Shown one piece after another: positions 2,615 to 57,167 of a stretch of DNA of 64,000 bases. This DNA is from a virus (lineage: Duplodnaviria > Heunggongvirae > Uroviricota > Caudoviricetes), in IMG/VR virus record IMGVR_UViG_3300028888_000051, positions 163,384 to 227,383 of that record; one strand, written 5' to 3'. The position numbers and the translations under genes are program-made. The stretch's first letter is position 1. Every line of letters starts with the position of its first letter. The notes under the pieces were generated by a model. The model made no database searches. It had not been told where the DNA came from and saw only the letters and a program-made list of their open reading frames with translations.

Positions 2615-2740
2615 AAAAAAACAAAAAATTATTTTAACTTTTGCATTAACACTAACTTTGGCTTTTTATTTTTAAAATTTTTTAAATTTAAATATTTATG
2701 TTTTTTTGAAATAAGTTCTAAATTCTAAAAGGAGAAAATT

Positions 2741-4184: not shown

Positions 4185-4205
4185 ATATCCTTATGGAGTA
4201 GATAG

Positions 4206-4772: not shown

Positions 4773-4793
4773 TTTTAATTCAAGGAGATACTA

Positions 4794-5114: not shown

Positions 5115-5195
5115 ATTGGAAATTTAAATAATATTTTTTGTTTATTTTAAGACTTCTATATTTGTGATAGTACAATTTAGAGGTCTTTTTATATT

Positions 5196-19472: not shown

Positions 19473-20246
19473 ATGTTTATAAAAATAATTAAATTCATGT
19501 TTAGTTGGTTTAATAAAAAAGAAAAGATCGAAGAATCAAAACCTGTTGAAGTACAAGAAAAACAGGAATCAAAACCAATTACAGTATCAATTGAAAAAGA
19601 AAATGAAAAAATTAAATTAACATGGTTATTTTTACGTGAAACATTATATAAAGTTAATAATAATCTTAATAAGAATGATTGTGATTATTATTATGAAGCT
19701 TTAAATAAAATACTTCCTCAATATGAAATTAATACTAAACTCAGAGTTTGTCATTTTTTGGCACAAATTTTACATGAAAGTGGGCATTTAAAATATAAAT
19801 CTGAAAATTTAAATTATTCTGCGAAAGCTTTACGTTCTGTTTTTGGCAAATATTTTAAAACAGATGAAATCGCAAAAGCATATGAAAGAAAGCCAGAAAA
19901 AATTGCTAATAGAGTATATGCTAATCGCATGGGTAATCGTAATGAAGCGAGTGGTGATGGGTATAAATTTCGTGGGCGTGGACTTATTCAACTCACTGGA
20001 GCTAACAATTATAAGATTTGTGGACAAGATTTAGGTTTAGACTTAGTAAAAAATCCAGATTTAATTATATCTGATCCAGAAATTTGTGTAAAAACAGCTT
20101 GTTGGTTCTGGAATAAGAACAAATTAAATGAATTAGCAGATAAAGATGATATAAATGCTATAACAAAATGTATTAATGGTGGCTTAAATGGAATCGATGA
20201 TCGCCGTAAAATATTAAATTTAGCTAAAGATAAAATAAATATATAA
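19473..20246 (+). CDS. glycoside hydrolase family 19 (chitinase-like) endolysin with about 75-aa N-terminal extension
   Basis: HFLAQILHESG and GRGLIQLTGANNY catalytic-region motifs of GH19; N-terminal hydrophobic MFIKIIKFMFSWF. Confidence 0.75.
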   Translation: MFIKIIKFMFSWFNKKEKIEESKPVEVQEKQESKPITVSIEKENEKIKLTWLFLRETLYKVNNNLNKNDCDYYYEALNKILPQYEINTKLRVCHFLAQILHESGHLKYKSENLNYSAKALRSVFGKYFKTDEIAKAYERKPEKIANRVYANRMGNRNEASGDGYKFRGRGLIQLTGANNYKICGQDLGLDLVKNPDLIISDPEICVKTACWFWNKNKLNELADKDDINAITKCINGGLNGIDDRRKILNLAKDKINI

Positions 20247-20818: not shown

Positions 20819-21715
20819 ATGTCAAATGAATTAGTATTAAATTCAGAATGGACGCCTTTTTTAATAGAAAACAGAGCTTCTATTACATTTGATAAATTTT
20901 TAGATTTAATTAAACAATTAGATAACAATAGTTCACCAAATTTATGGACAAAATGGAAAAATTATGCTAATCAAGTAGTTATAGAAACACCAAATTACTA
21001 TTTTAAGTTATATGAAGATGATTATTTATGTGGTTCATTTTGGTCATTAATTCGCTCTACTTTAGGAGAGATATATACAAAATATTTTAATATTTTGTGG
21101 GATGTTAATATTATAAAGCAAAATAGTAAAATATATACACTCGAAAGACGTCAAAAATTAAATGTATGTATACCGAATTCAATTTTATATACTGATTTAC
21201 TTCTTAATTGGTCAAATACACTTAAAAAACTAGAAAATGAACTTTTATTATCAGAAATATGTCAACAACTTAAACCATATATTCCAGAATTAGCAGAACT
21301 TAAGTTGATACGTAATTGTATAAATAAATATGCAGATTATGCTATTACTGAAGATAATAATATTGTACTTTTAGATGATTCCGATTGGTTTATAGCTATG
21401 GTTGATAAAAACGGTAAATGGTTAAATTCAAAATTTAAAGGTTATAATATAATTTCTAGTTTAGGAGAAACAATTTTTGCTCCAGAGGGTTATTTTGATA
21501 AAGGAAATATAACTAAACATGAAGAATTTACAAATAAATGGCAAATTTATATGGAAAATATTAAAACTACAGAAATAGAAGGAATTTTATTTGATCAACG
21601 TGAACAAATGCTCAAAGATAATATATCTTTGATATTTAATCAAAAACTTTTGCCTAATCAAAATATAAAATCTTTTGATTCAGTAGGTGATTTACTTAAA
21701 ATTGGTTTTGAATAA
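20819..21715 (+). CDS. hypothetical protein (about 298 aa; track start 20789 is TTG, ATG at 20819 more likely)
   Basis: ORF; 3' end overlaps convergent radical-SAM gene by 20 nt. Confidence 0.5.
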   Translation: MSNELVLNSEWTPFLIENRASITFDKFLDLIKQLDNNSSPNLWTKWKNYANQVVIETPNYYFKLYEDDYLCGSFWSLIRSTLGEIYTKYFNILWDVNIIKQNSKIYTLERRQKLNVCIPNSILYTDLLLNWSNTLKKLENELLLSEICQQLKPYIPELAELKLIRNCINKYADYAITEDNNIVLLDDSDWFIAMVDKNGKWLNSKFKGYNIISSLGETIFAPEGYFDKGNITKHEEFTNKWQIYMENIKTTEIEGILFDQREQMLKDNISLIFNQKLLPNQNIKSFDSVGDLLKIGFE

Positions 21716-22742
21716 ATTCTCTATCACAGATAACACATTCATCAGAATCTATATAGGCGCAATAATTTAGTTGATGTCCACATTTAGCTGTAAGAAATTC
21801 TAAGCAATTACCTTCTTTTTCATTTAATTCATTTCGTGTATGTTTATTTCTATGATTTAATTGCATACGATGATTATCATCTGATTCATTGAAATTTCTA
21901 TACAAATCATCTGCACGATAAATTATATTAAAAAGTTTATCATATAAACCTGGGCAATCTTCTTTAAATTTAATTAAAAATTTTAAAAAATCTTCTCTTT
22001 TTGGAAAAAAACCCGGTAATCTTTTTTCCATTAATTGTTTAGCTTCCATGTATTGTTCAATTTTTGATAAGTTTTCATGAATAGGTTTAATTCCACCTGG
22101 AGAAGGTTGTTTAAAAAACATAGAAGTATGATATTTATTCATAAAATCATTAAAAGAAAATTCACCATTCAGATATTTGGTAATTATATCTTGAGTTAAA
22201 ATGGTACAAGTGTTAAAATTTAATGTTGGATATTTTTCATGTAAATTTAACATGTTATTTGACCAATTTTCTTGCATTTTTGGTAAATGAAAACGACCGA
22301 TCGTATCATAAGATGTAACAAGCCATACTTGATTTATTAATTCTGGTTTTCCGGCTTGAATATACATTTTTTTCATAATATCCAAAGAAGTATATAAATC
22401 TTTTTGTGAACCTATTGTAAGGGTACACATAATCCATACTTCACGTATTTTACCTGAAATTTGTAATTCTGCAGTTTTTTGCATAAGATTAAAAAATTTA
22501 TTTTTGACTTCATCTACATCAAGTTGACCTTGAAAAAATTCTCCACCTATATAAGATACTGTGTTATATGGAATCATTTTTTTGTTATCAGATAAAAAAT
22601 TATAAGCATCATCAAGTGCCTTAATTTTTAATTCTGTTGGTGTAAAGCTATTACTGTTTGCATTATAACAAAATACACATTTTTGATTACATTGATGCCA
22701 TAATTCAAACTGTAAACTCTTTTTTTCATTTATATCCATCAT
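21696..22742 (-). CDS. radical SAM protein, paralog 1 of 4 (348 aa), C-terminal 4-Cys cluster
   Basis: WHQCNQKCVFCYN (CxxxCxxC), YIGGEFF SAM-binding GGE motif, ILTQ and FFPKREDFLKF family motifs, C-terminal CGHQLNYCAYIDSDECVIC. Confidence 0.8.
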   Translation of the reverse strand: MMDINEKKSLQFELWHQCNQKCVFCYNANSNSFTPTELKIKALDDAYNFLSDNKKMIPYNTVSYIGGEFFQGQLDVDEVKNKFFNLMQKTAELQISGKIREVWIMCTLTIGSQKDLYTSLDIMKKMYIQAGKPELINQVWLVTSYDTIGRFHLPKMQENWSNNMLNLHEKYPTLNFNTCTILTQDIITKYLNGEFSFNDFMNKYHTSMFFKQPSPGGIKPIHENLSKIEQYMEAKQLMEKRLPGFFPKREDFLKFLIKFKEDCPGLYDKLFNIIYRADDLYRNFNESDDNHRMQLNHRNKHTRNELNEKEGNCLEFLTAKCGHQLNYCAYIDSDECVICDREFIQNQF

Positions 22743-23660: not shown

Positions 23661-24584
23661 TTACTCTCCTAGTATAAGTAAATCACAAAGCATACATTCA
23701 TCTGAATCTGCATAACATCTATATAATTCACTATGACCACATTCGGTAATATTTTCTTTACCATCAGATAAAATTGGTTGTTGAGTTATATCATTATTTT
23801 TATTACGTAAACCAGTATATTTATAAATCGCCGAAGCGTTAGTTGAACTATACATATTAGTATATATCTGTGGAAAGTTTTCTTTCAAATATATACAAAA
23901 ATTAAGAAAATCTTCACGTTTGAAGAAAAAGTCATTTAATTTAAAACCAGAATGTATTGGATGAGGATATAAAAAACAAAAATTACATCCTTTTAGTTCT
24001 TCTTCTAAAAAATATTTAAAATCAAATTTGTTAGACATAATATCATCAATAAGATATTGAGTTAAAATCATTTGAACTCCAACTGCATAATTATATCTAT
24101 CTCTAAATTTTTTGATATTTTCTAAAGCTAATAATCTTTTTTCTTCTGAAGGATATCTATATTTTATATCATAAGAAAAATTTACATCTATAAATCGCAT
24201 GTCTCCTGTTTTTTCTTTGATTCTGTCTATAACACGAAATAAAAATGCTGGATCATACATTCCATTAGTTACAGTTGAATAGCGACATCTATAAGAAGTA
24301 CTAACTAATAATATTTTATTTATGATGTCATCTATTAAAAGCATAAATTCATCTTGTATATCTTTATCGGTTATAAAATACAATTCACCACCTAAAAGAG
24401 ATATACCATCAGCAAATTTATCTTTCCAATCAATATAATCCAAATTTTTTCTTATTTTATGTATTTCTTCAATAAGTCTAGATTTATCCCAAACTTCACG
24501 ATTTTTTCGTAAACAGAATTTACAGTTATTGTTACAATTTGGCCAAAGTGAATATTGATTCATATAATGTTTAATTTCTAACAT
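23661..24584 (-). CDS. radical SAM protein, paralog 3 of 4 (307 aa), C-terminal 4-Cys cluster
   Basis: WPNCNNNCKFC, LLGGELY, MILTQ, FFKREDFLNF, C-terminal CGHSELYRCYADSDECMLC. Confidence 0.8.
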   Translation of the reverse strand: MLEIKHYMNQYSLWPNCNNNCKFCLRKNREVWDKSRLIEEIHKIRKNLDYIDWKDKFADGISLLGGELYFITDKDIQDEFMLLIDDIINKILLVSTSYRCRYSTVTNGMYDPAFLFRVIDRIKEKTGDMRFIDVNFSYDIKYRYPSEEKRLLALENIKKFRDRYNYAVGVQMILTQYLIDDIMSNKFDFKYFLEEELKGCNFCFLYPHPIHSGFKLNDFFFKREDFLNFCIYLKENFPQIYTNMYSSTNASAIYKYTGLRNKNNDITQQPILSDGKENITECGHSELYRCYADSDECMLCDLLILGE

Positions 24585-25464: not shown

Positions 25465-25503
25465 TAATTTATATTTTAGAACTGAAATGAGTTCTATATA
25501 TCA
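25465..25503. promoter_or_regulatory. divergent promoter-like region: back-to-back copies of the GTTCTA motif forming palindrome TAGAACT gaaatg AGTTCTA
   Basis: read directly; minus-strand copy faces radical-SAM operon, plus-strand copy faces ORF 25526. Confidence 0.55.
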
Positions 25504-25525
25504 TATAAAAAATAAAGGAGAAGTT

Positions 25526-26029
25526 ATGGAAAATATTAAACAATTAACTAAAGATGAAAAAATAGAAAAATTACGTGCTTATATGAAAGGTGAAATTTTA
25601 GATAATGATTTAGCCTTTAATGTATTTTTATTATTGTGTCCACCAAAAAATTTTGGTCAAGATTTTTTTGAACATGAAAAAGTAATGTATTCATCTATTA
25701 TTGAAATATGCTCTATAACAGGTTTATTAAAACAAGATATGATTGATTTTTGTAGTCAATTATTAGGTATATATGAAGCTTGTTTTAGATATTGTGTACC
25801 AATTAAAACAGAAAAACAAGAAACTAATGTACCAGAACAATATTTAAAAATTTTTGCATTATTAGATTTTCAAAGAATAGCCAAATTGTATGAAAAATAT
25901 GAGGCAGCTAATATAAATTGTAAGTATGGAGATGCTTATAAAGTAATTTATCCGTTTATGAGACAGTTTAATTTCTATGAAGATTTAATGTGTGAAAACG
26001 GATTTGAATTTGGAGATAATTGTGACTAA
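25526..26029 (+). CDS. hypothetical protein (about 167 aa; track start 25487 lies inside promoter motif, ATG 25526 with aaaggag RBS preferred)
   Basis: RBS aaaggagaag 7 nt before ATG 25526. Confidence 0.5.
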   Translation: MENIKQLTKDEKIEKLRAYMKGEILDNDLAFNVFLLLCPPKNFGQDFFEHEKVMYSSIIEICSITGLLKQDMIDFCSQLLGIYEACFRYCVPIKTEKQETNVPEQYLKIFALLDFQRIAKLYEKYEAANINCKYGDAYKVIYPFMRQFNFYEDLMCENGFEFGDNCD

Positions 26030-26816
26030 TAGTACAACAAATATTGATTCTAATGAAAAAATAACTTATGCTGTATTAACAACAAAATTTTTAGAATGGT
26101 TAAAAGCAAGTTGTAAAAATATAGGTACAGCATATGCATCAGATGTACCAGATGCAATGAAAAGTACAACATATCATAAAGATTATACCGGTACTATATC
26201 TGTTCCAGCTGATTGTAAGCCAAAATCAGCAAGTAGAAACACAAATTATAAAATGAGTATGAATATAAATAATACTTCATTACCAAATAGTTTTCCATTA
26301 GTTACTATCTCTGATATTGAAACAGATTTCAATAATTTTATGCAAGCTAGAGGTATATATACTAAATCAGATACTCCAGTTATAGCAACTGGTTTATTGG
26401 CTTTTTGGAATAATGTTGCATCATTTTGTTCAGCACGTATATATAATGTAGCTGGATTAAATGCTACAAAGGCATTACGTATGTATAAAAAATTAGGAAA
26501 AACAGTAGCTGAAATACAAGCTGCAGATAGTGGAAATAATCCATATTATAAAAAAGTTTCTACTATGACTCAAGGGTTTGTTCCAAATTCTTCACAAGGT
26601 AATTGTTTTAATAAAAATGATGTTACAAAATTATTAGATGAATTAGAAACAATTATTGGAGAGACAAATAGATTATATACTGTCACGTATGTTTTTTCAA
26701 ATAGTTTATGGTCATCATCTTGCTGTTCAAGTTCTTGTTCTTCTAGTTCATCATCTAGCTCAAGTAGTAGTTCATCATCTAGTTCAATGTTTATAGGATA
26801 TATGAAATTATATTAA
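25992..26816 (+). CDS. hypothetical protein, paralog of ORF 27969-28670, with poly-Ser/Cys C-terminal tail (start is GTG; GTG 26022 with ggag RBS also possible)
   Basis: shared motifs ETDFNNF, TGLLAFWNNV, ITY..L.T..L.W.K with ORF 27969; tail SSSCCSSSCSSSSSSSSSSSSSSSS. Confidence 0.55.
   Translation: MKTDLNLEIIVTNSTTNIDSNEKITYAVLTTKFLEWLKASCKNIGTAYASDVPDAMKSTTYHKDYTGTISVPADCKPKSASRNTNYKMSMNINNTSLPNSFPLVTISDIETDFNNFMQARGIYTKSDTPVIATGLLAFWNNVASFCSARIYNVAGLNATKALRMYKKLGKTVAEIQAADSGNNPYYKKVSTMTQGFVPNSSQGNCFNKNDVTKLLDELETIIGETNRLYTVTYVFSNSLWSSSCCSSSCSSSSSSSSSSSSSSSSMFIGYMKLY
26703..26790 (+). repeat. coding Ser-codon repeat (TCA/TCT/AGT/AGC) encoding poly-Ser/Cys tail
   Basis: tcatcatcttgctgttcaagttcttgttcttctagttcatcatctagctcaagtagtagttcatcatctagttca. 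Confidence 0.7.
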
Positions 26817-26879
26817 AAATATTCTTTAATTGCTATATATAAATTAAGTTCAATAATATAAATCATTGGAGTTTATATT

Positions 26880-27920
26880 ATGAAAGACAAAAATTTAATA
26901 ATTAAAGAATGGTTTGATATAGATGGTTTTTCAGTTAATGAATTACAAATATTAAAAGCTCATCGTCCAGAAGTAATAAAAAATTATAATATCGATTTAG
27001 AAAAATCAATGATAGATAGATTTTCTAAATTATTACCTTATAGTCATATAAATTATGGCACACATGAAATTTCTTTTTTTGAACATGCTACAGATATAAT
27101 AAATTGTTTATTTTCACAAAAAGTTGATGATAATACTTTAGTTATTGTATCTAATAATGAGCATGAAAATGTAATAAAAAATTATACACAATGCAAGAAT
27201 ATTTATGTTTTAGATTTTGATACTGAAATAATACCATGTAAATTAGATAATTTATATGCAGAATGCAGTAAATATAGAAAAGTATTTGTATATATAATAG
27301 GCACACAAGTTTCAAATGGAATAATTACACCACAATTATTTTTTGAAACATTAAAAACTTGGCTAGTATCAAATCAAAAAGAGCATGTAATGATAATTGA
27401 TGATGTGCATGGCTTATTTATAGTACCTAGAGATTATACTATATTTGATTACATCATTTATACATGTCATGCTTTAATTACACAATTTGATATGGGAATT
27501 TTAATTGCAAAGAGACCTTCTGAATTAGTAGGATATCATTATTTAAATTGGGGAATGGCTTATTTAGATGCTATAGAAATAATATTTAATCATTTAATAA
27601 AATTTTATAATTTCAAAAATATAATGTGCCAATATTTTGAAGAAGAAATTGCTGAAAAAAAGTTGACATTAAATTCTAATACAGCTCCACATATTTTTGC
27701 ACCAGAAATTCATAGACTTAGATTAAATAAAAATGATTTTGATGAGATATTTTATGAATTAAAAAAGTATGATATGCGTATTGAGGGAGGATTTGATGAA
27801 AATGGTAAATGTAATTCTAGATTATATCTTCGAATAAGAGAAGGGCAATACTTTACACATCCAGAAAGATTAATTCCAGGTTTAGAAATAGCTAAGTCAA
27901 TTTTTAGTACAATAGAATAA
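26880..27920 (+). CDS. hypothetical protein (346 aa) with weak resemblance to PLP-dependent aminotransferase class-V fold; catalytic Lys not evident
   Basis: IIDDVHGLFIVP...DYIIYTCHALITQFDMGILIAKR resembles DA.Q..G...D..SgHK..GP.G.G.L..R pattern of NifS/IscS-like enzymes but HK replaced by HA. Confidence 0.3.
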   Translation: MKDKNLIIKEWFDIDGFSVNELQILKAHRPEVIKNYNIDLEKSMIDRFSKLLPYSHINYGTHEISFFEHATDIINCLFSQKVDDNTLVIVSNNEHENVIKNYTQCKNIYVLDFDTEIIPCKLDNLYAECSKYRKVFVYIIGTQVSNGIITPQLFFETLKTWLVSNQKEHVMIIDDVHGLFIVPRDYTIFDYIIYTCHALITQFDMGILIAKRPSELVGYHYLNWGMAYLDAIEIIFNHLIKFYNFKNIMCQYFEEEIAEKKLTLNSNTAPHIFAPEIHRLRLNKNDFDEIFYELKKYDMRIEGGFDENGKCNSRLYLRIREGQYFTHPERLIPGLEIAKSIFSTIE

Positions 27921-27968
27921 AGTTCTAAATTTATATTAATATAAACAAATAATTTTAATGGTAATATT

Positions 27969-28670
27969 ATGGCAATTGATCCTACAAATACACTTACATA
28001 TAATGAATTAAAAACTGATACTTTAAATTGGATAAAAACTATTCCACAAAATGTTGGTTCATATAAAAGTACTGTACATGCATCTTTAAGAGATCCAAAT
28101 TGGAGTAAAACATTAACTCAATATAATTATAATTGGGAATATAGATATACATATAATAAACAAGGAAATCCAACAAAAGCTGATAGATATCGTACACATA
28201 TTGATTTGATTGCCAAAATAAATACAGCTACAATTATTCCAGTAGTAACAGCAACACAAATTGAAACAGATTTTAATAATTTTTTAACTACAGCTAATAT
28301 TAATTCACGTTTAAATGGAATAGTTACAACATCTGGACTTTTAAATTTTTGGGATAATGTAGTATGTTTTTTATATAAACATTTGGTTAGTGTTTCTAGT
28401 AATGATGCACCAAATGGTGTTTTAATGTATTGGTCAACTTCAACATATAATTATAAATATGTTACTAAATTATCAGATAACTATACTACAGTACCAAGTG
28501 AAACAAAAATTACAGCACAAGATATGTTAGATATGTTAACCACATTAGAAGAAACTTATAATTTTGCACATCGAACACATATTGTTACTTATTCGATAAC
28601 AAAAACGACAACTGTTACAAAATTAGCTACTGGTGTTGCACCTGGTACTTATGAATCACCTGAATCATAA
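27969..28670 (+). CDS. hypothetical protein (233 aa), paralog of ORF 25992-26816
   Basis: IETDFNNFLTTANINSRLNGIVTTSGLLNFWDNVV matches paralog; AGTTCTAAAT motif upstream. Confidence 0.55.
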   Translation: MAIDPTNTLTYNELKTDTLNWIKTIPQNVGSYKSTVHASLRDPNWSKTLTQYNYNWEYRYTYNKQGNPTKADRYRTHIDLIAKINTATIIPVVTATQIETDFNNFLTTANINSRLNGIVTTSGLLNFWDNVVCFLYKHLVSVSSNDAPNGVLMYWSTSTYNYKYVTKLSDNYTTVPSETKITAQDMLDMLTTLEETYNFAHRTHIVTYSITKTTTVTKLATGVAPGTYESPES

Positions 28671-28674
28671 AATT

Positions 28675-29259
28675 TTAAAATTCTTTTGTTTGTAACCAGT
28701 GTTTTCTACAAACAGATTTATACACTATATTATCTTTTTCGATTCCTATAACTTTATTTGAAGTATCTGGTTTTCTATTTACATAACGTAAATGATGTGT
28801 TGCTTTATTTGTACAATCTGGTTTTTCACATAACATTTCTATTTCTTGTATTTCATCTGCAAATTCAATAAAAGCTTTTGTACCTTCAAAAAGATTTCCA
28901 TTAATATCATTTTTTAGACCATATGCAATAATATTTATATTTTGTTGTTCAATTAACTTTGAAATAAAAATTACATCATCACGAGTAAAAAATTGTGCTT
29001 CATCAATAATAATTATTTTATCATAATTTATATTGTTTAATTCATTTTCAAAATTTTCAATATAATAAGCAGGTATTTTTTCTTTAATCAGTCTAGAAGT
29101 AGTATATCCCCAACCTTTTTGATTTCCATCTCGTGTATCTATAACTGGTTTTATTATAATAGGATTCATGTTTTTATATTTGTACATTTGATATGTTTTT
29201 ATTGCATTTACTGATTTACCTGCATTCATACATCCATAATAAAACTTTAATTTTGTCAT
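28675..29259 (-). CDS. tdk: thymidine kinase
   Basis: P-loop GCMNAGKS, DEAQFF, C-terminal zinc ribbon CEKPDC...CRKHW typical of type II TK. Confidence 0.85.
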   Translation of the reverse strand: MTKLKFYYGCMNAGKSVNAIKTYQMYKYKNMNPIIIKPVIDTRDGNQKGWGYTTSRLIKEKIPAYYIENFENELNNINYDKIIIIDEAQFFTRDDVIFISKLIEQQNINIIAYGLKNDINGNLFEGTKAFIEFADEIQEIEMLCEKPDCTNKATHHLRYVNRKPDTSNKVIGIEKDNIVYKSVCRKHWLQTKEF

Positions 29260-29362: not shown

Positions 29363-30163
29363 CTAAGAAAATAACTTTACAAGCTTTTGCCAGAATGTAT
29401 CTGGATTTTTAACTTTTGCAACTATTACCTCTTCTTTTTTATTTTTAATAATAGATTGGCCAGAGAGTAAATAGTTTTTAAGATCATCATACTCAGCATT
29501 ATACCTCGCTTTATATTCTGGATACTTGATCTTTCTATATGTATATAATTTTTCTAAAAATTTTTCTTTCGTAAGAATATTTTTATTAAAACATATACTT
29601 TGGAAGATTTTATAAGCACCACCTTGTCCATGTTGTATAATAGTAGACTTAACTGCTGCTTGAATAGCATTATCTTCAGAAGCCCAAGATGTTAATTTAT
29701 TAAAATTACTATTGCCGTTTTTATCCATACGAATATAAACAGGAATTATTTCTTTTTTTAATAAAAAATTATCATATGAATTTCTAAAAGATTTTTCAGT
29801 AGCTATTTTCTTCCATATATTTATAAAATTTTTATTACCAGCATATGCAGCTCTATAACCACCTGCTTGTATTAATATATCATAATACTTATAATTATTA
29901 TCTTTTAAATATGTTAAAAAGAAATCAAAAGTAGATGGTAAATTGTTCTTTCTCCAAGTAGATATTTGCCACTTTCCATAAGAATAACCACCATATCCAT
30001 CCTTACTTATTGCTTGATACCCTAATTTACCACATTCATATTTTGCTACAATATCATGCTTTGTATGAAGAGCATCATAATTTGTTTTGGCTTGAACTGT
30101 TACTATATTTCCAAAAATAACTAAAGTTATATAATAACTTAACCAAAAGATTTGTTTAATCAT
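29363..30163 (-). CDS. secreted protein with signal peptide; weak lysozyme-like (GH108-type E.G...D.GG..YG) motif
   Basis: N-terminal MIKQIFWLSYYITLVIFGNIVTVQA signal; YECGKLGYQAISKDGYGGYSYGKWQIS. Confidence 0.35.
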   Translation of the reverse strand: MIKQIFWLSYYITLVIFGNIVTVQAKTNYDALHTKHDIVAKYECGKLGYQAISKDGYGGYSYGKWQISTWRKNNLPSTFDFFLTYLKDNNYKYYDILIQAGGYRAAYAGNKNFINIWKKIATEKSFRNSYDNFLLKKEIIPVYIRMDKNGNSNFNKLTSWASEDNAIQAAVKSTIIQHGQGGAYKIFQSICFNKNILTKEKFLEKLYTYRKIKYPEYKARYNAEYDDLKNYLLSGQSIIKNKKEEVIVAKVKNPDTFWQKLVKLFS

Positions 30164-36250: not shown

Positions 36251-37018
36251 TTATTTTACACTGTTTATAAATGGAATTGGAGCTGAGCCATAAATATTTA
36301 CTGGTAATTTTCCATCCCATTTTTGTACAGCTTCATAAGCAACTAAATTTTGATTTTTACTTAGGGCTTCAGAACGAATAGCCATTGACTTAGCCTCTGC
36401 TTCAGCAGCAAGAACTTTTTGTTTAGCTTCTTCTTGGACTTCAGCTGTTCTATTCCTTGCTTCTTCAGCCTTTTGTGTTGCTACAACTTTAGCTTCAATT
36501 GCTCTTTCAAAAGCATCTGTATATTCAATATTATTTAAAGAAACTGAACTTATTTTTATATAAAAAGCTGTCAAAGTTGTATTTAAATCTCTTTTAATTT
36601 CATCTGTAGCTTTTTCACGATTAGCAACAAGATTTGCAGCATCCCATTTACCAATCACATCTTTAACAACAGCCTCAGCATTAGGACGTAATACTTTTTC
36701 TTCATAATTTTTACCAATTTCACGATGTAAATTAATAATATTATCTAAATCAAGACGATAATTGAGAGTAATTTTCATATTAGCCGTTTGAATATCTTTT
36801 GTATAGGTCTCTATTTCCATTGTATATTTTTGAGTTTTACCTTCATATTCAATTACATTACCACCAAATGGCATATAAAAATATAAACCTTCTTCTAATG
36901 GCTTTTCTGAAGTAATTTCACCCCACATTGTCTTCAAACCACGATTACCTGTATCAATTTGCTCACCACATCCAGTTAATGAGCAAACAATAAATAAAAC
37001 AGTAAAAATTTTTTTCAT
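36251..37018 (-). CDS. SPFH/band-7 (prohibitin/stomatin-like) lipoprotein
   Basis: lipobox LTGC after signal peptide; SPFH-like core and C-terminal A/E/K-rich helix (ERAIEAKVVATQKAEEARNRTAEVQEEAKQK). Confidence 0.7.
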   Translation of the reverse strand: MKKIFTVLFIVCSLTGCGEQIDTGNRGLKTMWGEITSEKPLEEGLYFYMPFGGNVIEYEGKTQKYTMEIETYTKDIQTANMKITLNYRLDLDNIINLHREIGKNYEEKVLRPNAEAVVKDVIGKWDAANLVANREKATDEIKRDLNTTLTAFYIKISSVSLNNIEYTDAFERAIEAKVVATQKAEEARNRTAEVQEEAKQKVLAAEAEAKSMAIRSEALSKNQNLVAYEAVQKWDGKLPVNIYGSAPIPFINSVK

Positions 37019-37882: not shown

Positions 37883-38470
37883 TTATTGATGGTTTTTAAC
37901 TATTTCATCAGTAACACCATAATCAATTGCTTCTTCTGCTGACATCCAAAAATCACGTTCACAATCTTTTTTAACTTGATTAATATCTTTATTTGTAGCA
38001 TTAGCGATCATTTGCATTAACATATCTTGTAATCTGCTAACTTCTTCTAATGTAATTTTCATATCATGAACATTTGCTTGCATACCACTACTAACAGAAT
38101 GAAGCATATATCTAGCATGAGGCATTATTTTACGCATACCTTTTGTACCAGATAATGCAATCATAGCATCCATAGAGGCAACTTCACCTGATACAATAGT
38201 TGATACAGGACATGAAATCATATTCATAGTATCAATAATCTGTAAACCAGCTGTTACACTTCCACCTGGTCCACTAACAATCATTGTAATAGGTTTATCT
38301 TTATCTTCTGCTTCTAAATATAAAAGTTGAGCAACAACACTTTCGGCTAATTCATCATCAACTTTACCACAACATAAAATTAATCTATCACGAATTAATC
38401 TTGAAGTAATATCAACTTGACGTTCGTTACCATTAGAATCTTTATAAATAACTGATGGAATTCCTATCAT
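37883..38470 (-). CDS. clpP: ATP-dependent Clp protease proteolytic subunit-like serine protease
   Basis: GGSVTAGLQIIDTM, active-site Ser context GEVASMDAMI, His region RYMLHS, ERDFWMSAEEAIDYG. Confidence 0.8.
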   Translation of the reverse strand: MIGIPSVIYKDSNGNERQVDITSRLIRDRLILCCGKVDDELAESVVAQLLYLEAEDKDKPITMIVSGPGGSVTAGLQIIDTMNMISCPVSTIVSGEVASMDAMIALSGTKGMRKIMPHARYMLHSVSSGMQANVHDMKITLEEVSRLQDMLMQMIANATNKDINQVKKDCERDFWMSAEEAIDYGVTDEIVKNHQ

Positions 38471-41027: not shown

Positions 41028-42377
41028 TTAAGCTATAATATTATCTGGTCCATTATTAATTGATAAATCATATTTTTGTTTATAAAAAGGACCTACTTTA
41101 TTTAGCATTTTTTTAACCGTAGAGTGAATACTTTCATTTTCTAAATCAATTATGCCTTCAGGAACCTCTTGCTTACCACGAAGTAAAATACGAGCAATAA
41201 GTTGACCTAATTCAAAGCACATAGATTCATCAAAACCCCGAGTTGTAATCGCTGGAGTACCAATTCTAATTGCAGAAGATTCAGATGGTTTAGTATCACC
41301 CGGCATCATGTTTTTATTACAAATAATATGATATGATGTTAATAAGTCTTCAGCCTGTTTACCATTTATACCAGAATTTCTAAGGTCTACTAATACCATA
41401 TGATTTTCTGAGCCATTACTAATGAATCCTATTTTATTTTCTTTATCGAAATCTCTTATACCATTGATAAGTGCTTGCATATTACAATATACTTGTTCTA
41501 TATAATCTTTAAATTCTGGTTTGAGAGCTTCAATAAAACATTGTGCTTTAGCAGCAACAAGTGCTTCATTTGGACCACCTTGAATTTTTGGAAAACACCC
41601 ACTGTTAATTTTACTACAAAGTTTTTGGTCATTCCAAAGAATTATACCACCACGAGGTCCTCTTAAAGTTTTGTGTGTTGTAGAAGTGATCACATCACAC
41701 CATTTAGTTGGATCATATTTATCTTTCCATAAATGAGCAGCAATAAATCCCATTACATGAGCTGAATCAGACATAAGATAACATTTTGTTTCTTCATCCC
41801 TACCAAGATTATATACATCTACCAATTTCCTTATATATTCATAATTAATTCGTTTAGAATAAGCTGAAGCTCCAACAACTAACATTCTTGGATGATATTG
41901 AAGTAATTTTTGTTTAATTTCTTCATAATTCAATTCACCATTTTCATCAAGACCATAATATACAGGATTATATATATGACCTGTTAATGAAGCTTTAGAG
42001 TAGTGTGTCAAATGTCCGCCATATTCTATGCCCATTCCAAGTACTGTATCACCTGGTTTTAAAAGACCTGCATATACAGCTTGATTAGCCTGAGAGCCAG
42101 AATGAGGTTGAACACAAGCAAAATTTACATTAAATAATTCTTTAGCTTTTTCTATAGCATAATTTTCTACTTCATTTATTACTTCACATCCAGCATAATG
42201 ACGTCCCTGTTTAGAAACTTCATTTGGAAATCCTTCTGCATACTTTACAGATAAATGACTTCCCAAAAGATCAAGAATATCTTGACTTGGATAGTTTTCT
42301 GAAGCTATTAATTCAATACCATCATTAAGACGATTTGTCTCTTTGCTTTCTAATTGTTGTAATTTTTGATCAATCAT
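41028..42377 (-). CDS. glyA: serine hydroxymethyltransferase
   Basis: PLP-lysine motif TSTTHKTLRGPRGG, GSQANQAVY, overall SHMT length and motif order. Confidence 0.9.
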   Translation of the reverse strand: MIDQKLQQLESKETNRLNDGIELIASENYPSQDILDLLGSHLSVKYAEGFPNEVSKQGRHYAGCEVINEVENYAIEKAKELFNVNFACVQPHSGSQANQAVYAGLLKPGDTVLGMGIEYGGHLTHYSKASLTGHIYNPVYYGLDENGELNYEEIKQKLLQYHPRMLVVGASAYSKRINYEYIRKLVDVYNLGRDEETKCYLMSDSAHVMGFIAAHLWKDKYDPTKWCDVITSTTHKTLRGPRGGIILWNDQKLCSKINSGCFPKIQGGPNEALVAAKAQCFIEALKPEFKDYIEQVYCNMQALINGIRDFDKENKIGFISNGSENHMVLVDLRNSGINGKQAEDLLTSYHIICNKNMMPGDTKPSESSAIRIGTPAITTRGFDESMCFELGQLIARILLRGKQEVPEGIIDLENESIHSTVKKMLNKVGPFYKQKYDLSINNGPDNIIA

Positions 42378-42943: not shown

Positions 42944-43663
42944 TCATAAAGCGAAAAATTCCCACTTCTTCTTTTTACAATACTCTAATGCACTATTATG
43001 TAAATTGCAAGAAGAACAATTGTTACATGGTTTTTTATCAACACAACCTGGAGATTGACAATATGAACAATATTTTAATATTTTATGCTCATGTAAATAC
43101 CACAAAATATATTTCTTTTCAACCCACTCAAATGGTAAATATAAACTAGCATTAGCTTTACTCATTGAGTTTATAGTTTCAAAAAGATTATTAAATTTAT
43201 CTATAAAGTGCCATATATCATCATTTTTTATATATCCACATGAGATTAAACGGTTATTACCCCTAATTAAATTCGATATCATACTTAAAAACAATTGTGG
43301 CTGACTAATACCTCCTCCATTACAATAATCATCACAATCACCATTTTCTTTAATTTCAAATGTAATGTGATTAACTAATATTTTTTGCTTTTTAAATATC
43401 TTAAGTAATTGTTTTTGAGCAATTATATCAGCAGGATAACTTCCGAATCGGTCATAATTTATAGAAACAAGATTGATAGTTTTATGGAACTTTTCCCACA
43501 AATATAATACTAAAGCTGTAGAATCACATCCACCACTCCATAAAACAAAAATGTCTGAAATATTTTCTGGTATTTTTATATAATTACTATACAAATCATT
43601 TACCCAATTAAAAAATTCTGAACCGATTATATCTTCTCGTATATCCATGACTTTCCTATTCAA
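42944..43663 (-). CDS. PP-loop ATP pyrophosphatase, QueC-like (7-cyano-7-deazaguanine synthase family)
   Basis: N-terminal PP-loop VLWSGGCDSTALVLYL; C-terminal zinc motif CQSPGC...CNNCSSCNLH matching QueC CxxCxxCNL[RH]. Confidence 0.6.
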   Translation of the reverse strand: MNRKVMDIREDIIGSEFFNWVNDLYSNYIKIPENISDIFVLWSGGCDSTALVLYLWEKFHKTINLVSINYDRFGSYPADIIAQKQLLKIFKKQKILVNHITFEIKENGDCDDYCNGGGISQPQLFLSMISNLIRGNNRLISCGYIKNDDIWHFIDKFNNLFETINSMSKANASLYLPFEWVEKKYILWYLHEHKILKYCSYCQSPGCVDKKPCNNCSSCNLHNSALEYCKKKKWEFFAL

Positions 43664-50991: not shown

Positions 50992-51210
50992 ATGTATGAA
51001 AAATTAATAGATCTTAAAGATAATTTTTTATTTTGTATTGCAACTACATTTGTTGGAATTTTAATTATGATAATAGCTAGTGTTATTATAATTATAACAC
51101 TTCCAATGTATTATTTATTTTGGATAAATCCAGTATTTGAAATTTATCAAAATTTAATTTGGAAAATATATGATATATTATTTCAAATTGGATCAGATGA
51201 TGAAATTTAA
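50992..51210 (+). CDS. small membrane protein (72 aa)
   Basis: TM segments. Confidence 0.4.
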   Translation: MYEKLIDLKDNFLFCIATTFVGILIMIIASVIIIITLPMYYLFWINPVFEIYQNLIWKIYDILFQIGSDDEI

Positions 51211-54200
51211 ATTAAGTCTTGCAATTCTTCAGAAGATTGATCTATAAAATTTGAATAATCATTTACTTTTTCTTTTATTTGATTAGAAGAAATATATTCA
51301 TATTGCGGAAAATCTGAATAATTAAGCTGTGCATTATATATAAAACCAACAATTACATCAGCTAAATCTTTTAATTCAGTAGTTCGAGTTACTTTTCCTC
51401 TATCAAAAACAAGAGCCGATAATTCTTTTCTGAGTTTTGGACATATTCCTACTTTTACCTGTCCTAATTCCATTAAAGTAGATGCATTAACATAAGGTTC
51501 AAGTTTTATATCGACTGAAACTTTATTTACTACTTCGAAACATCCCGATTTAGCTAAATTTTGTTGAAAAATTTCTCCATTCCATTGATCGCTTGATACT
51601 GTATGAATTAGCATATTACGTTCAATTACTAAATTTATTAAAAAAGTTTCTATTGCATGTATATCTATTTTATTTCTTGCATTCACAGCTATAAGTAAAT
51701 CAACTACATATATTGTTTCATTTTCTTTTTTATTTTCATTATAACGCCATTCTTTATGACCAATACATATACCAGCATCACATTGTCCAGAATCACCACC
51801 TCCTGCTAAATCTACATGACAATAACGTTTTGCAAAAGGAGCTCTTTTAAATATCCATCTACCATCTGTTAATTGTTCCCATAAATTATATTCATCTAGT
51901 AAAGCTAATATATCATTATTATCACTTATATCAGCTTTAATATTAAATTCTGGAGGCAATTCAGCATCTTCAATTTTTGATATATCTTTAAAGACTGTAC
52001 TGTTATCTACAGTTGTCATTCCTGCAATATCTTGAATAGACTGATCTAATTGTAATTCAAATTTTTCTTTATATACAGTTGGAACATTTATTACTTCACA
52101 TCCAATGGGTGGTATATAATTTCCATCTTCTAAAGCTTTCAATTCACCAGGATCGGTAAATATTTTAGAAGGAATTGAGCCATTACCAACAAGAACAGGA
52201 AATGTAGAGCCATCACCTAAAAACTCAGGATCTTCTTTAACTTCCCAAAGCCGAGGCATAAGAATAAGAATAGATGGATCATTTTTTGGCAATCGACGTA
52301 TGTATTCACCAATAGGACTATTTGTTGTACGAGCTGATGATACAACTGACTGAAATACTAAAGGACTTCCTTGAAAACGTGAACTAAAACGATTATCAAC
52401 TGAATTAAGAAGTGCCAAAGCTTCATCTACACCTTTTTCATTGATCTCATCCATAAAGCTATTTACTATATTCAAACCTATAGTATGAGTTATACCTGAA
52501 CCAGATGTAATAATAATATTGTCTGGAAAATATATCGTGCCTGTCGATTTTTCCACATTAAATGGTATTGGACAATGTGGATCCGATAAATCAAAATTTT
52601 CAAAAGATTGCATTCGCATAACTCTTTGAAAACACGGCATTGTTTCCATAAGTTTAACAAATGGTAATAAATTTGTTTCATAAACTTGTTTTAAAGTCAT
52701 AGAAATAATAACATTTGCTATTGTTGCATCACTATCTATATTAAATACTGCTCTAGGATAACGTAAACATAATATACGATATAAAACATATAAAAAAGCT
52801 TTACGAGCAATTGTTGACTTACCACAATTATGTGCAATTATACCAGCCTTTAAAGCAAAATTATGATTTTTTTCTGTAGTTATATCATAAACTTGTTGTT
52901 TACCTATATATTCTATAGAAATTATTTTATGATTGTATATTTTTTTACGCTTGTAATTTTCTTTAGCCCCTAAAGTAGGATCATACCAAGGCTCTCTTGT
53001 ATGAATAAATGCTAATAATTCAATGTATTTTTGATTTTCTTTTCCATGGAATCTTGCAATAGTAGCTAATACTTGTTTAGCCAATATAATTGCTTTTTCT
53101 TCAGGACTTTTGTTGGCTTTTAAATTACGCATATTTTCAGCCATTTTTTTAGAAATATTTCTAGCCTTTTCTGTTTTATTTCTTTCTATTAAAGTTTTAC
53201 TTGCTCTTTGTCTATATTCTTCACTATGTGGACCATTCCAACCGGCAAGCGAAGCTTTTCTTTGGTGTTCTGAATCTTGATGTAGTTTATTCCATCCAAT
53301 TTTTCTTTTTGCTTCTATCTCTTCATAATCTAAGCGAGCTTTATAGGTAATATGACTTTTTATTCCTTTTTGTCTTCTGTATTCTTTAAATTCATCACCT
53401 CTAATTGAAGCATTATATTCTTTCCATCTTCTACCTCCAACTTTAGCGTGATATTCCCAATGATATTTGTGAGGTATAATAGCTAAATTTTGAGGTCTAT
53501 CATCTAATTTATTAAAATTTTTATGGTGAACAACTTGTCCAGTTTTATATAAAGTTTTCCATTTACCTACTATTTGATATCTTTTTTCCCATTTTTCAGT
53601 AGTATTATTTTTTATTTGAATATATCCTTTATCACTAATTTTTGAATAATAAGGCATCATAGATTCACCAGATTTTAATCCAGTATCTATACTTTTCCAT
53701 TTATTTTTTCTTGTTAAAAATCTATGATCTGATGTACATTTAATTATTTCACCATTGTCTAAAGTTATTTTATACACATCTTTTATACCACTACAAAATA
53801 CATTAATTATCTTATCTGGTTCCCAAGTTTTATTAAATGTATTAAATGATAATACCCATTCATTATTATAATTATTAAGTAATTCATAAATTGTTTTATT
53901 ACCATTTAAAGTAGCTACTATCGTATCACCGGTTAAGCAACCAATACTTCCACCAAATATAGTTTTTCTTACTGGTGAGCCTTCCCTAAACATATATTCA
54001 AGTTGTTGTCGCCAATAAGGATATAATGTAGCATTACTATTATACATATAAAATTTACCAGATAAAAATTCTTCAATATTAGGCATAGGTCGTCTATATA
54101 AAAGATTATCAATTTGATCTGTTAAATCAGAATCCTGATTTGTTAATGTCAAATATAAAGCAATACGTTTTTGTATTTCTTGTTGCTTTTTAAATTCATC

Positions 54201-54344
54201 TGGCATATAATGCTCTTCATAATATGCTAAAATGTCTATAAAATCTTGTGACATAATAACATTTTGAAGTTCATTTGCATTATTAAATGAAACTATTGGA
54301 AGATTTTCTAATTTTTTTGCAATATCAGTAGGAAGTTGTTCCAT
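51207..54344 (-). CDS. terminase large subunit (T4 gp17-like) interrupted by an intein in the Walker A P-loop; extein about 674 aa
   Basis: extein junction restores GGSIG|CGKST Walker A; C-terminal nuclease motifs CHVDLAGGGDSGQCDAG; intein blocks CLTGDTIV ... VYDITTEKNHNFALKAGIIAHN|C. Confidence 0.85.
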   Translation of the reverse strand: MEQLPTDIAKKLENLPIVSFNNANELQNVIMSQDFIDILAYYEEHYMPDEFKKQQEIQKRIALYLTLTNQDSDLTDQIDNLLYRRPMPNIEEFLSGKFYMYNSNATLYPYWRQQLEYMFREGSPVRKTIFGGSIGCLTGDTIVATLNGNKTIYELLNNYNNEWVLSFNTFNKTWEPDKIINVFCSGIKDVYKITLDNGEIIKCTSDHRFLTRKNKWKSIDTGLKSGESMMPYYSKISDKGYIQIKNNTTEKWEKRYQIVGKWKTLYKTGQVVHHKNFNKLDDRPQNLAIIPHKYHWEYHAKVGGRRWKEYNASIRGDEFKEYRRQKGIKSHITYKARLDYEEIEAKRKIGWNKLHQDSEHQRKASLAGWNGPHSEEYRQRASKTLIERNKTEKARNISKKMAENMRNLKANKSPEEKAIILAKQVLATIARFHGKENQKYIELLAFIHTREPWYDPTLGAKENYKRKKIYNHKIISIEYIGKQQVYDITTEKNHNFALKAGIIAHNCGKSTIARKAFLYVLYRILCLRYPRAVFNIDSDATIANVIISMTLKQVYETNLLPFVKLMETMPCFQRVMRMQSFENFDLSDPHCPIPFNVEKSTGTIYFPDNIIITSGSGITHTIGLNIVNSFMDEINEKGVDEALALLNSVDNRFSSRFQGSPLVFQSVVSSARTTNSPIGEYIRRLPKNDPSILILMPRLWEVKEDPEFLGDGSTFPVLVGNGSIPSKIFTDPGELKALEDGNYIPPIGCEVINVPTVYKEKFELQLDQSIQDIAGMTTVDNSTVFKDISKIEDAELPPEFNIKADISDNNDILALLDEYNLWEQLTDGRWIFKRAPFAKRYCHVDLAGGGDSGQCDAGICIGHKEWRYNENKKENETIYVVDLLIAVNARNKIDIHAIETFLINLVIERNMLIHTVSSDQWNGEIFQQNLAKSGCFEVVNKVSVDIKLEPYVNASTLMELGQVKVGICPKLRKELSALVFDRGKVTRTTELKDLADVIVGFIYNAQLNYSDFPQYEYISSNQIKEKVNDYSNFIDQSSEELQDLI
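52827..53939 (-). mobile_element. intein (371 aa) with HNH homing endonuclease domain, inserted in TerL P-loop
   Basis: N-terminal Cys codon TGC at 53937-53939, block B TSDHRFLT, HNH VVHHKNFNKLDDRPQNLAIIPHKYHWEYH, terminal HN followed by +1 Cys (TGT 52824-52826); boundaries verified by codon counting. Confidence 0.85.
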
Positions 54345-55217: not shown

Positions 55218-57167
55218 ATGAAAAATATTTGTAAAAATTGCGGCAAAGAATATGAATTTGAACCAAAGCATGGAACCTATAAATTTAAGTATTGTTCTCA
55301 AGAATGTAAACATGCCTTTGCGAAAAAAGATGAAGAACCACAATATAGGATTTGTGAATATTGTGGTAAAGAATATTGGTGGAGTAATTCGTTTAAAAAT
55401 TATAAAGAATATGTACATATAGATACAAAACGTTTTTGTTCTGCTGAGTGTAGTAAAAATTATAAAAAAGAAAAAATTAAACAAACATGTTTAAAAAAAT
55501 ATGGTGTTGAATATATTTCACAAACTGCAGATGTTAAAGAAAAAATGAAAAATGCATGGAAAAATAAATCAGAAAAAGAATTAAAATTGCGTCAAGAAAG
55601 TAGAAAGCAAACTAATTTAAAAAAATATGGTGTTGAACATGTATCTAAATTATCTGAAATTAAAGAAAAAGTAAAGCAAACAAATTTAAAAAAATTTGGT
55701 GCTGAATTTTATACACAAACAGATGAATATAAAGAAAAATATAAACAAACCAATCTTAAAAAGTATGGTGTAGAGCATTGTTCACAAGTACCAAAAATAG
55801 CAGAAAAAATAAAAAATAGTCTATTAAATAAATCTAAAGAAGAATGGGTTAAAATTATAGATAAGAGAAAGCATACTAATTTAGAGAAGTATGGTACAGA
55901 AAGTGCTTCTCAGAATAATGATATAAAACAAAAAGTAAAACAAACTAATTTAAAAAAATTTGGAAACGAAATAGCAATTCAATCAGATATTATACAATCT
56001 AAAATTAAACAAAATAATCTTGAAAAATATGGTGTAAAATATAGTATAGCATCTAATGAAGTACAAGAAAAAATTCGTACTACAAATTTGAAAAGATATA
56101 ATTATGAATATCCATTTCAATCTGAAGAATTAAGAAAAATTATGGAAGAAAATAGAAAAAAGACGAATCTTAAAAAATATGGTACAGAAAACATTAGTCA
56201 AGTTAAAGAATTTAAAGAAAAAGCAAAAAATACATGTTTGAAGAAATATGGTGTACCATATAATTGTATGACTGAAAATTGTTTAGAAGTAGGACATAGT
56301 ACTATATCTAAAATAAATTTGGCTTTTAAAAATAAATTAGATAAATTAAATATTCAAAATAAACTAGAATTTCATATTGATAAATGGAGTTATGATTTTT
56401 TATGTAATGATAAGTTTTTAATTGAAATTAATCCTAGCTATACACATAATTCATCTAATACTAAAAAACGATTGGAATTTATGAAGCCAAAAGATAAATA
56501 CTATCATTTTAACAAAACTAAATTAGCTTATGAAAATGGTTATCAGTGTATTCATATATGGGATTGGGATGATAAAGAAAAAATTTTAAATATACTTGTT
56601 GATAAAAAGAAAATATATGCTAGAAAATTAATATTAAAAAATGTATCAAATGAAGAATGTAATGAGTTTTTAAATTCATATCATTTACAAAATACATGTA
56701 AAGGACAAACTATTAGATTAGGTTTATATAAAGATAATGAATTGATACAATTAATGACATTTGGAAAAGCGAGATATACAAAAAATTATGAATATGAATT
56801 ATTAAGATTATGTACAAAAGCAGAATATAAAGTTATCGGAGGAGCAGAAAAATTATTTAAACATTTTTTAATTATATATAATCCAAAATCTATAATTTCT
56901 TATTGTGATAATTCAAAATTTTCAGGAGAAGTATACAAAAGATTAAATATGAATTTGAAAGATTATGGAACACCAAGAAAGCATTGGTATCATATAGAAA
57001 AAAATAAACATATTACAGAAGCACTTTTACTTCAAAGAGGTTATTCACAATTACACGGTGATAAAGAACATATAAAAGGTGAAAATAATGAAAAACTGAT
57101 GTTAGAAGCAGGATATGTAGAAATATATGATTCTGGTCAAAGTACATATGTTTGGCATAAAAACTAA
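55218..57167 (+). CDS. homing-endonuclease-like protein: N-terminal Cys4 zinc ribbons, about 10 tandem NUMOD3-like 23-aa repeats, C-terminal Vsr/DUF559-like nuclease domain
   Basis: CKNCG...CSQEC and CEYCG...CSAEC; repeats TNLKKYGVEHVSKLSEIKEKVKQ; C-terminal YDFLCNDKFLIEINPSYTHN ... NGYQCIHIWDWDD matches vDF...IE.DG..H...Gw.vlRf pattern. Confidence 0.55.
   Translation: MKNICKNCGKEYEFEPKHGTYKFKYCSQECKHAFAKKDEEPQYRICEYCGKEYWWSNSFKNYKEYVHIDTKRFCSAECSKNYKKEKIKQTCLKKYGVEYISQTADVKEKMKNAWKNKSEKELKLRQESRKQTNLKKYGVEHVSKLSEIKEKVKQTNLKKFGAEFYTQTDEYKEKYKQTNLKKYGVEHCSQVPKIAEKIKNSLLNKSKEEWVKIIDKRKHTNLEKYGTESASQNNDIKQKVKQTNLKKFGNEIAIQSDIIQSKIKQNNLEKYGVKYSIASNEVQEKIRTTNLKRYNYEYPFQSEELRKIMEENRKKTNLKKYGTENISQVKEFKEKAKNTCLKKYGVPYNCMTENCLEVGHSTISKINLAFKNKLDKLNIQNKLEFHIDKWSYDFLCNDKFLIEINPSYTHNSSNTKKRLEFMKPKDKYYHFNKTKLAYENGYQCIHIWDWDDKEKILNILVDKKKIYARKLILKNVSNEECNEFLNSYHLQNTCKGQTIRLGLYKDNELIQLMTFGKARYTKNYEYELLRLCTKAEYKVIGGAEKLFKHFLIIYNPKSIISYCDNSKFSGEVYKRLNMNLKDYGTPRKHWYHIEKNKHITEALLLQRGYSQLHGDKEHIKGENNEKLMLEAGYVEIYDSGQSTYVWHKN
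55482..56274 (+). repeat. in-frame tandem coding repeats (about 69-bp units, about 10 copies, some with insertions)
   Basis: protein-level repeats TNLKKYGVE..SQ..EIKEKVKQ read from translation. Confidence 0.7.

Follow-up and report, generated by a model that had tools for sequence, protein, structure and literature searches.

The locus and its surroundings

The window analysed here is a stretch of 64,000 nucleotides from a tailed virus of the Caudoviricetes (IMG/VR record IMGVR_UViG_3300028888_000051) and corresponds to the reverse complement of positions 9508-73507 in the 227,378-bp ENA metagenome contig ERZ27257205 k141_5434835. It has a GC content of about 26% and the gene content of a jumbo phage, with tail/baseplate-like genes, two ClpP genes and genes for a Band 7 protein, serine hydroxymethyltransferase (SHMT), dihydrofolate reductase (DHFR), thymidine kinase, RecA, SbcCD-like proteins and an intein-containing protein. 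The gene under study lies on the minus strand, and the features that bear on its interpretation are as follows.

42944-43648, minus strand: coding sequence of a predicted QueC-superfamily PP-loop protein with a zinc-type cysteine cluster, 234 aa plus stop (from the ORF, the contig gene call and homologs)
43651-43657, minus strand: AGGAAAG, a Shine-Dalgarno-like sequence shortly before the ATG at 43648 (read from the sequence)
43520-43537, minus strand: PP-loop SGGCDS, residues 38-43, the pyrophosphate-binding motif, preceded by a family-specific Trp (WSGGCDST) (alignments)
43289-43303, minus strand: QPQLF, residues 116-120, opposite RNxxF of canonical QueC, with Gln in place of the essential R99 (alignments)
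43205-43222, minus strand: DDIWHF, residues 143-148, at the start of a helix and opposite the QueC/Cap9 substrate loop (HMMER, hmmalign and hhalign)
43115-43117, minus strand: K178 in PFEWVEK, the equivalent of QueC K165 and invariant in the family (alignments)
43007-43069, minus strand: cysteine cluster CSYCQSPGCVDKKPCNNCSSC, residues 194-214, followed by NLH to residue 217 (sequence and alignments)

A sequence-only reading of this DNA had described a QueC-like protein of 239 aa at 42944-43663 and had given no strand. Frame statistics and homologs confirm a real gene on the minus strand. The chance of 234 stop-free codons is about 3e-10 (at 26% GC, with a stop probability of 0.09 per codon) and homologs are found at up to E 7e-142, so the ORF is not a chance product. 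The length of 239 aa holds for the ORF as counted from a TTG at 43663, which is the start in a mechanical, program-made ORF list and probably not the true start. Judged from the sequence, translation almost certainly begins at the ATG at 43648 and yields a protein of 234 aa, since AGGAAAG precedes this ATG and since a length of 234 aa is shared by every close homolog and by the gene predicted on the source contig. The 90%-identity cluster of the window protein has 221 members on contigs of up to 244 kb, and copies that are 85-91% identical are present on eight related contigs. Among the related contigs, ERZ27280472 k141_631429, Ga0247609_10000016 and Ga0247610_10000018 measure 244-263 kb.

Other genes in and just beyond the window define its phage setting.

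21696-25451, minus strand: four tandem radical-SAM paralogs of 348, 305, 307 and 288 aa, all of which have CxxxCxxC near the N-terminus
41028-42377, minus strand: serine hydroxymethyltransferase
11553-12092, plus strand: dihydrofolate reductase
28675-29259, minus strand: thymidine kinase
37883-38470 and 36251-37018, minus strand in the window, with positions 913-5603 of flank L004: two ClpP proteases, a Band 7/SPFH protein, GroEL, GroES and glutaredoxin
29363-30163, minus strand, and 19473-20246, plus strand: cell-wall-hydrolase-like proteins, respectively a VgrG3-like C-terminal domain with an Ntox47 match and a glycoside hydrolase family 19 protein
51207-54344, minus strand: 1045-aa protein with an intein splicing domain (PF14890) within an MJ0330_N-domain protein
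55218-57167, plus strand: 649-aa DUF7487 protein with many tandem units of about 20 residues (KQTNLKKYGVEH.SQ...)
17473-18441 of L005, about 3.8-4.8 kb past the window end on the source contig: a second PP-loop protein, 322 aa long and far more divergent (SGSLDS ... CGVCPKC)

The ClpP, Band 7, GroEL, GroES and glutaredoxin genes, of which GroEL and GroES are located just beyond the window, constitute a proteostasis repertoire that is unusually rich for a phage. On a related contig (L003) the homolog of the 1045-aa protein is 674 aa long and apparently has no intein, and on that same contig a related DUF723/DUF7487 gene is inserted beside ClpP, an arrangement suggestive of a mobile element like a homing endonuclease. 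The window begins with an ORF of 674 aa, a cut gene that reaches 976 aa on the contig. The ORFs at 25487-28670, beside the radical-SAM paralogs, have no family match; the 316-aa ORF after DHFR (12300-13250) has no Pfam match, and none of the window's genes was recognised as a thymidylate synthase. The second PP-loop protein gave a weak match to a TtuA model and has no Pfam match on record.

Superfamily placement and predicted active site

Membership of the window protein in the QueC superfamily is supported, at the level of sequence models, by the Pfam QueC family PF06508, which it matches with 36.8 bits against a cutoff of 22 (E 3.8e-9) and which is also matched by 85 of 86 relatives. A single-sequence phmmer search against PDB sequences returned noise only, and the placement came with the family profile. 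In profile, profile-profile and fold searches the nearest proteins are Cap9 and QueC and not TilS, MnmA or AsnB. These other PP-loop families, named by the sequence-only reading (with AsnB as asparagine synthase) as the placement that would count against a QueC-like assignment, were rejected as a home since the profile and fold searches favour QueC and Cap9, and the QueC superfamily stands.

A related proposal is that the protein is a nucleic-acid modifier of the TilS/TtuA/ThiI kind that would adenylate a base carbonyl in tRNA or DNA. Weak matches to the TilS N-terminal domain occur in the window protein and in 34 of the 86 relatives, TtuA and TilS are close structural neighbours, and the adjoining genes often belong to replication or nucleotide metabolism. 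We nevertheless regard this proposal as very improbable: the similarity is limited to the generic PP-loop (about 60 residues, 19 bits against a cutoff of 94), the catalytic core of about 200 aa has no RNA-binding domain, longer family members carry no extra Pfam domain or other recognisable addition, and the C-terminal four-cysteine motif aligns with the QueC zinc site. The window also encodes no tRNA genes, and on this ground a role in queuosine for phage tRNAs was likewise rejected.

By its score and its residues, the window protein is not a canonical QueC. The QueC equivalog model TIGR00364, with a cutoff of 150.3, gives it 23.2-23.3 bits over a partial alignment, whereas the controls align over their full length with 295.8 bits for E. 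coli QueC, 185.2 for the QueC of Arthrobacter phage Sonali and 101.9 for that of Bacillus phage BCD7. Members of the lone-gene family to which the window protein belongs (the window protein, P0029, P0005 and L032) score 17-30 bits, and those of phages SP-15 and DS6A give no score. An experimental study of 2026 defined the canonical QueC signature as SGGxDS, YxQxHxxE, VPxRN, YPDC, K165 and C(x)8CxxCxxC, and reported that the Y35A, R99A, Y131A and Y189A mutants are all inactive. Among these elements the window protein retains SGGxDS, Lys165 (as K178) and the four cysteines and has no VPxRN, YPDC, YxQxHxxE or Tyr189.

The elements that are retained are those of the catalytic frame. The sequence-only reading had pointed to an SGGCDS PP-loop near the N-terminus, which is present, and had likened a C-terminal cysteine motif to the CGHCAACNLR of QueC, which is exactly what E. 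coli QueC reads at the aligned position. The role of SGGxDS in pyrophosphate binding is taken from published work on the QueC family. The cysteines C197-x10-C208-x2-C211-x2-C214 match the four zinc ligands of QueC, with a first spacer of 10 residues in the window protein versus 8 in QueC, and together with the PP-loop and Lys178 they are invariant over 102 sequences that share about 25-30% identity.

The residues that contact the substrates are, in contrast, replaced. In structures of Cap9 and Bacillus subtilis QueC the Tyr and Asp of a Y-x-D motif hold the deazaguanine, with the Tyr stacking on the base and the Asp reading N1/N2, while structural work has the Arg and Phe of RNxxF holding adenine, as do the equivalent Arg and Phe of QatC. 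The Sonali and BCD7 QueCs, which come from genuine phage clusters, retain both R-N and Y-x-D. In the window protein Gln116 occupies the position of QueC Arg99 in all three alignments (MAFFT, HMMER and hhalign), where the aligned residues are S-Q-P-Q-L and R-N corresponds to Q116-P117. HMMER and hhalign set I145-W146-H147-F148 opposite Y-P-D-C, so that the base-reading Asp becomes His, and MAFFT sets a gap opposite P-D-C; the base-reading Asp is thus supplied by none of the three. The C-Y189 of QueC corresponds to C197-Q198 in all three alignments. After this first zinc cysteine QueC has the essential Tyr189, whereas the window protein has Gln198 and most family members have Glu, a residue also seen in Cap9. 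The position of YxQxHxxE reads Y-D-R-F-G-S-Y-P, with the Tyr alone kept, and most of the family has a His there. The substitutions specific to the family are therefore Gln116 for Arg, [I/F/Y]-W-H-[Y/F] for Y-P-D-C, and mostly Glu, or Gln in the window protein, for Tyr189.

Loss of several canonical active-site residues might indicate a non-catalytic remnant or a structural decoy, a reading that we find barely credible given that the PP-loop, Lys178 and the four cysteines are invariant in the 102 sequences and that the replacement residues Q116, D143 and W146 are at least 90% conserved across the family, as is the Glu after the first zinc cysteine. Conservation of the replacement residues therefore argues for a pocket that works in a different way and not for decay. 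The AF2 model of the unliganded window protein has a pLDDT of 85.5 and a pTM of 0.86.

Pathway partners and distribution of the family

QueC makes preQ0, and the sequence-only reading had taken the gene as a hint of preQ0-type 7-deazaguanine chemistry, for which FolE (CEHH), QueD (CxxxHGH), QueE and a TGT/DpdA-like protein would be the partners. Gene content was inspected for 34% of the contig (78 kb, record positions 2802-80767), and precomputed Pfam matches for all called genes over this 78 kb include no GTP cyclohydrolase I, PTPS/QueD, TGT/DpdA or QueF. Local phmmer and HMM searches, seeded with FolE, QueD, QueE and Tgt/DpdA from E. coli, Sonali and BCD7, covered every stop-to-stop ORF in the window and flanks as well as in 34 further loci, and detected no FolE, QueD or QueE in the window or flanks. 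There was also no local HMM match to TGT/DpdA in the window and flanks, from a three-sequence HMM that likewise missed the BCD7 DpdA control; a divergent DpdA could therefore escape the local searches, and for the source contig the absence of DpdA is backed by the precomputed Pfam matches only. The QueD motif CxxxHGH does not occur in the window. A single CEHH, the FolE zinc motif, is present at 16902-16913 (plus strand) and was considered as a hidden FolE; it is a chance match in a 994-aa ORF that has no family match, scores -0.7 bits on the FolE HMM and offers a motif context unlike that of FolE. The four radical-SAM paralogs, which had been described as not diagnostic of QueE, match no QueE model and were rejected as QueE; they gave weak generic matches to viperin, NrdG and PapB models. 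Two of them, at 21696-22742 and 23661-24584, additionally have a C-terminal Cx14CxxC. Pfam, phmmer/HMM and motif searches thus bear out the statement that only a QueC-type gene is recognisable in the window. Its immediate neighbours include neither a KAP NTPase nor a TatD protein.

Genuine pathways look different. DpdA, QueC, QueD, QueE and FolE all lie within 5 kb in the Sonali and BCD7 controls, and genuine QueC adjoins queD in 33% and queE in 26% of genomes (2026 study). DpdA is the signature gene of 7-deazaguanine DNA modification in phages (PMC10516641), and a 2023 follow-up concluded that a DpdA is encoded by all phages with known 7-deazaguanine DNA.

The relatives of the window protein form a family of QueC-like phage proteins, mostly encoded by lone genes, which we define here from alignments (A1 and A4), with the motif set used in the membership test, and which comprises 634 representative clusters at 50% identity. 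Its signature consists of WSGGCDST, Q-P in place of R-N, G-Y-I-[RK]-x-D-D-x-W-H-[YF], P-[LF]-E-W-x-x-K and four cysteines. The window protein carries all of these elements, and its clade differs from the consensus by R78Q, W120F, W195S and E198Q. A scan of 185,579 species-representative cellular genomes for WSGGCDST identified three relatives, all on MAG contigs; the scan used this exact pattern alone, and the depletion in cellular genomes is therefore sampled and not exhaustive. The same pattern identified 63 metagenome loci and 31 loci in a viral collection. The family was thus found almost only in viruses, mostly large phages, and usually as a lone gene.

When the window protein was searched by tblastn against 50,697 phage records, Bacillus phage SP-15 was the sole match, at 27% identity, and megablast of 8 kb around the gene gave no match to deposited phages. 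Central members of the family also reach Vibrio phage YC and its relatives, the Pseudomonas PA1C group, Noxifer, Erwinia pEa_SNUABM_54, Ralstonia RSL2/RSF1, Burkholderia FLC6, Saccharomonospora PIS 136 and mycobacteriophage DS6A. The hosts of the family include Firmicutes, Proteobacteria and Actinobacteria. The best matches among predicted viral structures are those of Noxifer, YC and RSF1. Hutinet et al. (2019) had already set the SP-15 singleton aside as probably functionally unrelated, singletons of this type are unconnected to QueC in published similarity networks, and a 2026 survey of PF06508 delineated ten clusters, none of which has the motif set of the lone-gene family. The window protein is a new member of an earlier noticed, uncharacterised group of lone phage QueC-like proteins. 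DS6A is a marginal case, as its gp2 scores 44 bits on the family HMM, like the genuine QueC of BCD7; the absence of que genes from its complete genome therefore carries little weight as evidence from a singleton.

The neighbours of the family do not reveal a common pathway. At 24 viral loci the six genes nearest to the family member serve replication, nucleotide metabolism and DNA modification, and no que family is enriched among them. A further 66 loci (553 kb) yielded no FolE, QueD or TGT, with the same weak detection of TGT. Clustering by BLASTP and phmmer placed no neighbour family in more than 5 of 86 loci; the clusters that span several loci consist of RecA, of AAA proteins of the clamp-loader type, and of genes that members of the window's own clade share. 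SHMT is one of these shared genes and lies within about 1.3 kb of the QueC-like gene in that clade only. CD-NTase and Cap10 neighbours are absent from the window and from the 86 family loci. The sole que partner among about 100 family loci is found in one lineage, where the stop of the QueC-like gene lies in a 13-nt overlap with a QueD/PTPS gene (CKNPHGH, E 9e-16).

L032 9971-11016 and L033 9047-10092: locus of the overlapping QueC-like and QueD/PTPS genes

This lineage has a radical-SAM gene 8.5 kb downstream and no detected FolE or TGT, and the QueC-like protein of L032 is likewise non-canonical. Among other family loci, L031 has two QueC-like ORFs about 1.3 kb apart. Genes of the RNA-repair or ligase type occur in some family phages, for example RtcB (L041 and DS6A) and DUF2201/VWA with DUF2828 (L040 and L041); in L040, L041 and L047 such RNA-repair/RNA-ligase-type genes are not adjacent to the QueC-like gene.

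These observations bear directly on whether the window gene encodes a genuine QueC, a preQ0 synthase that would serve 7-deazaguanine modification of DNA or tRNA with partners elsewhere in the genome or with 7-carboxy-7-deazaguanine (CDG) from the host. Its superfamily membership, its conserved PP-loop, Lys and zinc cysteines, the adjacent QueD of one related lineage and a partner search that covered 34% of the source contig are all compatible with this role. We nonetheless consider it improbable, as the equivalog score is 23 bits compared with 102-296 for genuine QueCs, other residues stand in for the essential R99 and Y189 and there is no Asp to read the base, real phage pathways are tightly clustered while the partners are missing from 78 kb and from about 100 family loci (the QueD of L032/L033 excepted), a lone copy would be useless to a host that already makes CDG and its own QueC, and SP-15-type singletons are separate from QueC in similarity networks. 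The hint of preQ0-type chemistry is hence unsupported, and the sequence-only reading as a whole is partly supported. Given that the canonical pocket residues are replaced and that pathway partners are missing from the 78 kb inspected and from almost all family loci, the gene is not evidence for modified DNA.

Proposed activity and comparison with known systems

We think it likely, on the basis of sequence and model, that the window gene encodes a non-canonical PP-loop ATP pyrophosphatase of the QueC superfamily, predicted to act as an ATP-dependent adenylating enzyme with a remodelled pocket, and is neither a preQ0 synthase nor a marker of 7-deazaguanine DNA. The PP-loop would bind ATP, and Gln116 and Phe120 would make the contacts to adenine that Arg and Phe make in related enzymes. 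By analogy with characterised relatives, the enzyme would then adenylate a small planar substrate on a carboxyl or carbonyl oxygen while the zinc loop and the beginning of the helix (residues 143-148) enclose it, and an amine (ammonia or another nucleophile) may displace AMP to form an amide. CDG is most likely not this substrate because the Asp that reads its 2-amino-4-oxo edge is missing. The substrate may nevertheless be of the deazapurine type because the close relatives with a defined substrate, QueC and Cap9, act on CDG. The substrate is probably a common cellular molecule, as the family has no conserved partner and its hosts are spread over Firmicutes, Proteobacteria and Actinobacteria.

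More specific roles can be proposed with less confidence. Conjugation of host CDG, or of a related base-carboxylate, to a protein or other amine in the manner of Cap9 and QatC is one that we regard as unlikely; such an enzyme could modify phage proteins or could counter immunity that depends on deazaguanylation, as in type IV CBASS and Qat. A phage-specific repurposing of the QueC/Cap9 scaffold for a new substrate is quite doubtful as well. An enzyme repurposed in this way could link proteins or metabolites to a base-like carboxylate, or could divert or neutralise the CDG-dependent immune chemistry of the host (type IV CBASS, Qat); amidation of a pterin or deazapurine carboxylate such as CPH4 is a further possibility, an idea that comes from the QueD-coupled L032/L033 lineage. 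If true, a repurposed scaffold would represent a new enzymatic activity in many large phages.

Irrespective of the substrate, a remodelled adenylating enzyme has consequences for annotation. Phage records routinely label this family as "7-cyano-7-deazaguanine synthase" or "QueC-like queuosine biosynthesis", and such a label readily leads to the conclusion that the DNA is modified. Tests of single residues and of gene context indicate that the QueC label should not be taken as function, and that the marker for 7-deazaguanine DNA is DpdA and not a lone QueC-like gene. The main value of the analysis is thus caution over the QueC label together with a pointer to a large, almost only viral, enzyme family. 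Since QueC-like enzymes were recently shown to perform nucleobase-protein conjugation in bacterial immunity, the phage branch is a reasonable target for biochemistry.

Canonical QueC shares with the window protein its fold, the SGGxDS PP-loop, the Lys and the four-cysteine zinc site, and presumably also the adenylate-forming chemistry, by analogy. In contrast to canonical QueC, the window protein has no YxQxHxxE, VPxRN, YPDC or Y189, is not linked to queD, queE or folE, and belongs to a family that is almost only viral. Cap9 of type IV CBASS (PDB 9NTO chain B) keeps the Y/FxQ, R-N and Y-x-D-C elements for binding CDG and adjoins a CD-NTase and Cap10, whereas the lone-gene family has neither these elements nor such neighbours. 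QatC of the QatABCD system is a QueC-family enzyme in which the Tyr/Asp substrate pair is replaced by Thr/Thr, and it therefore provides a precedent for a remodelled pocket. QatC differs in its length of about 400 aa (versus 234 aa for the window protein), its N- and C-terminal extensions, its other signature motifs and its linkage to qatA, qatB and qatD; QatC models did not match the window protein and matched weakly in 7 of 86 relatives (NCBIfam) and 3 of 86 (PADLOC). The proteins of the same family as the window protein are SP-15 gp114 (YP_009302501) and those of YC, PA1C/PS119XW, Noxifer and RSL2/RSF1. These phage singletons, which are about 25-35% identical to the window protein, share with it WSGGCDST, Gln in place of R99, a W-H/Q-type substrate loop, the four cysteines and the lone-gene state, while the window protein is distinguished from them by a 30-residue N-terminal helix extension and by R78Q, W120F, W195S and E198Q.
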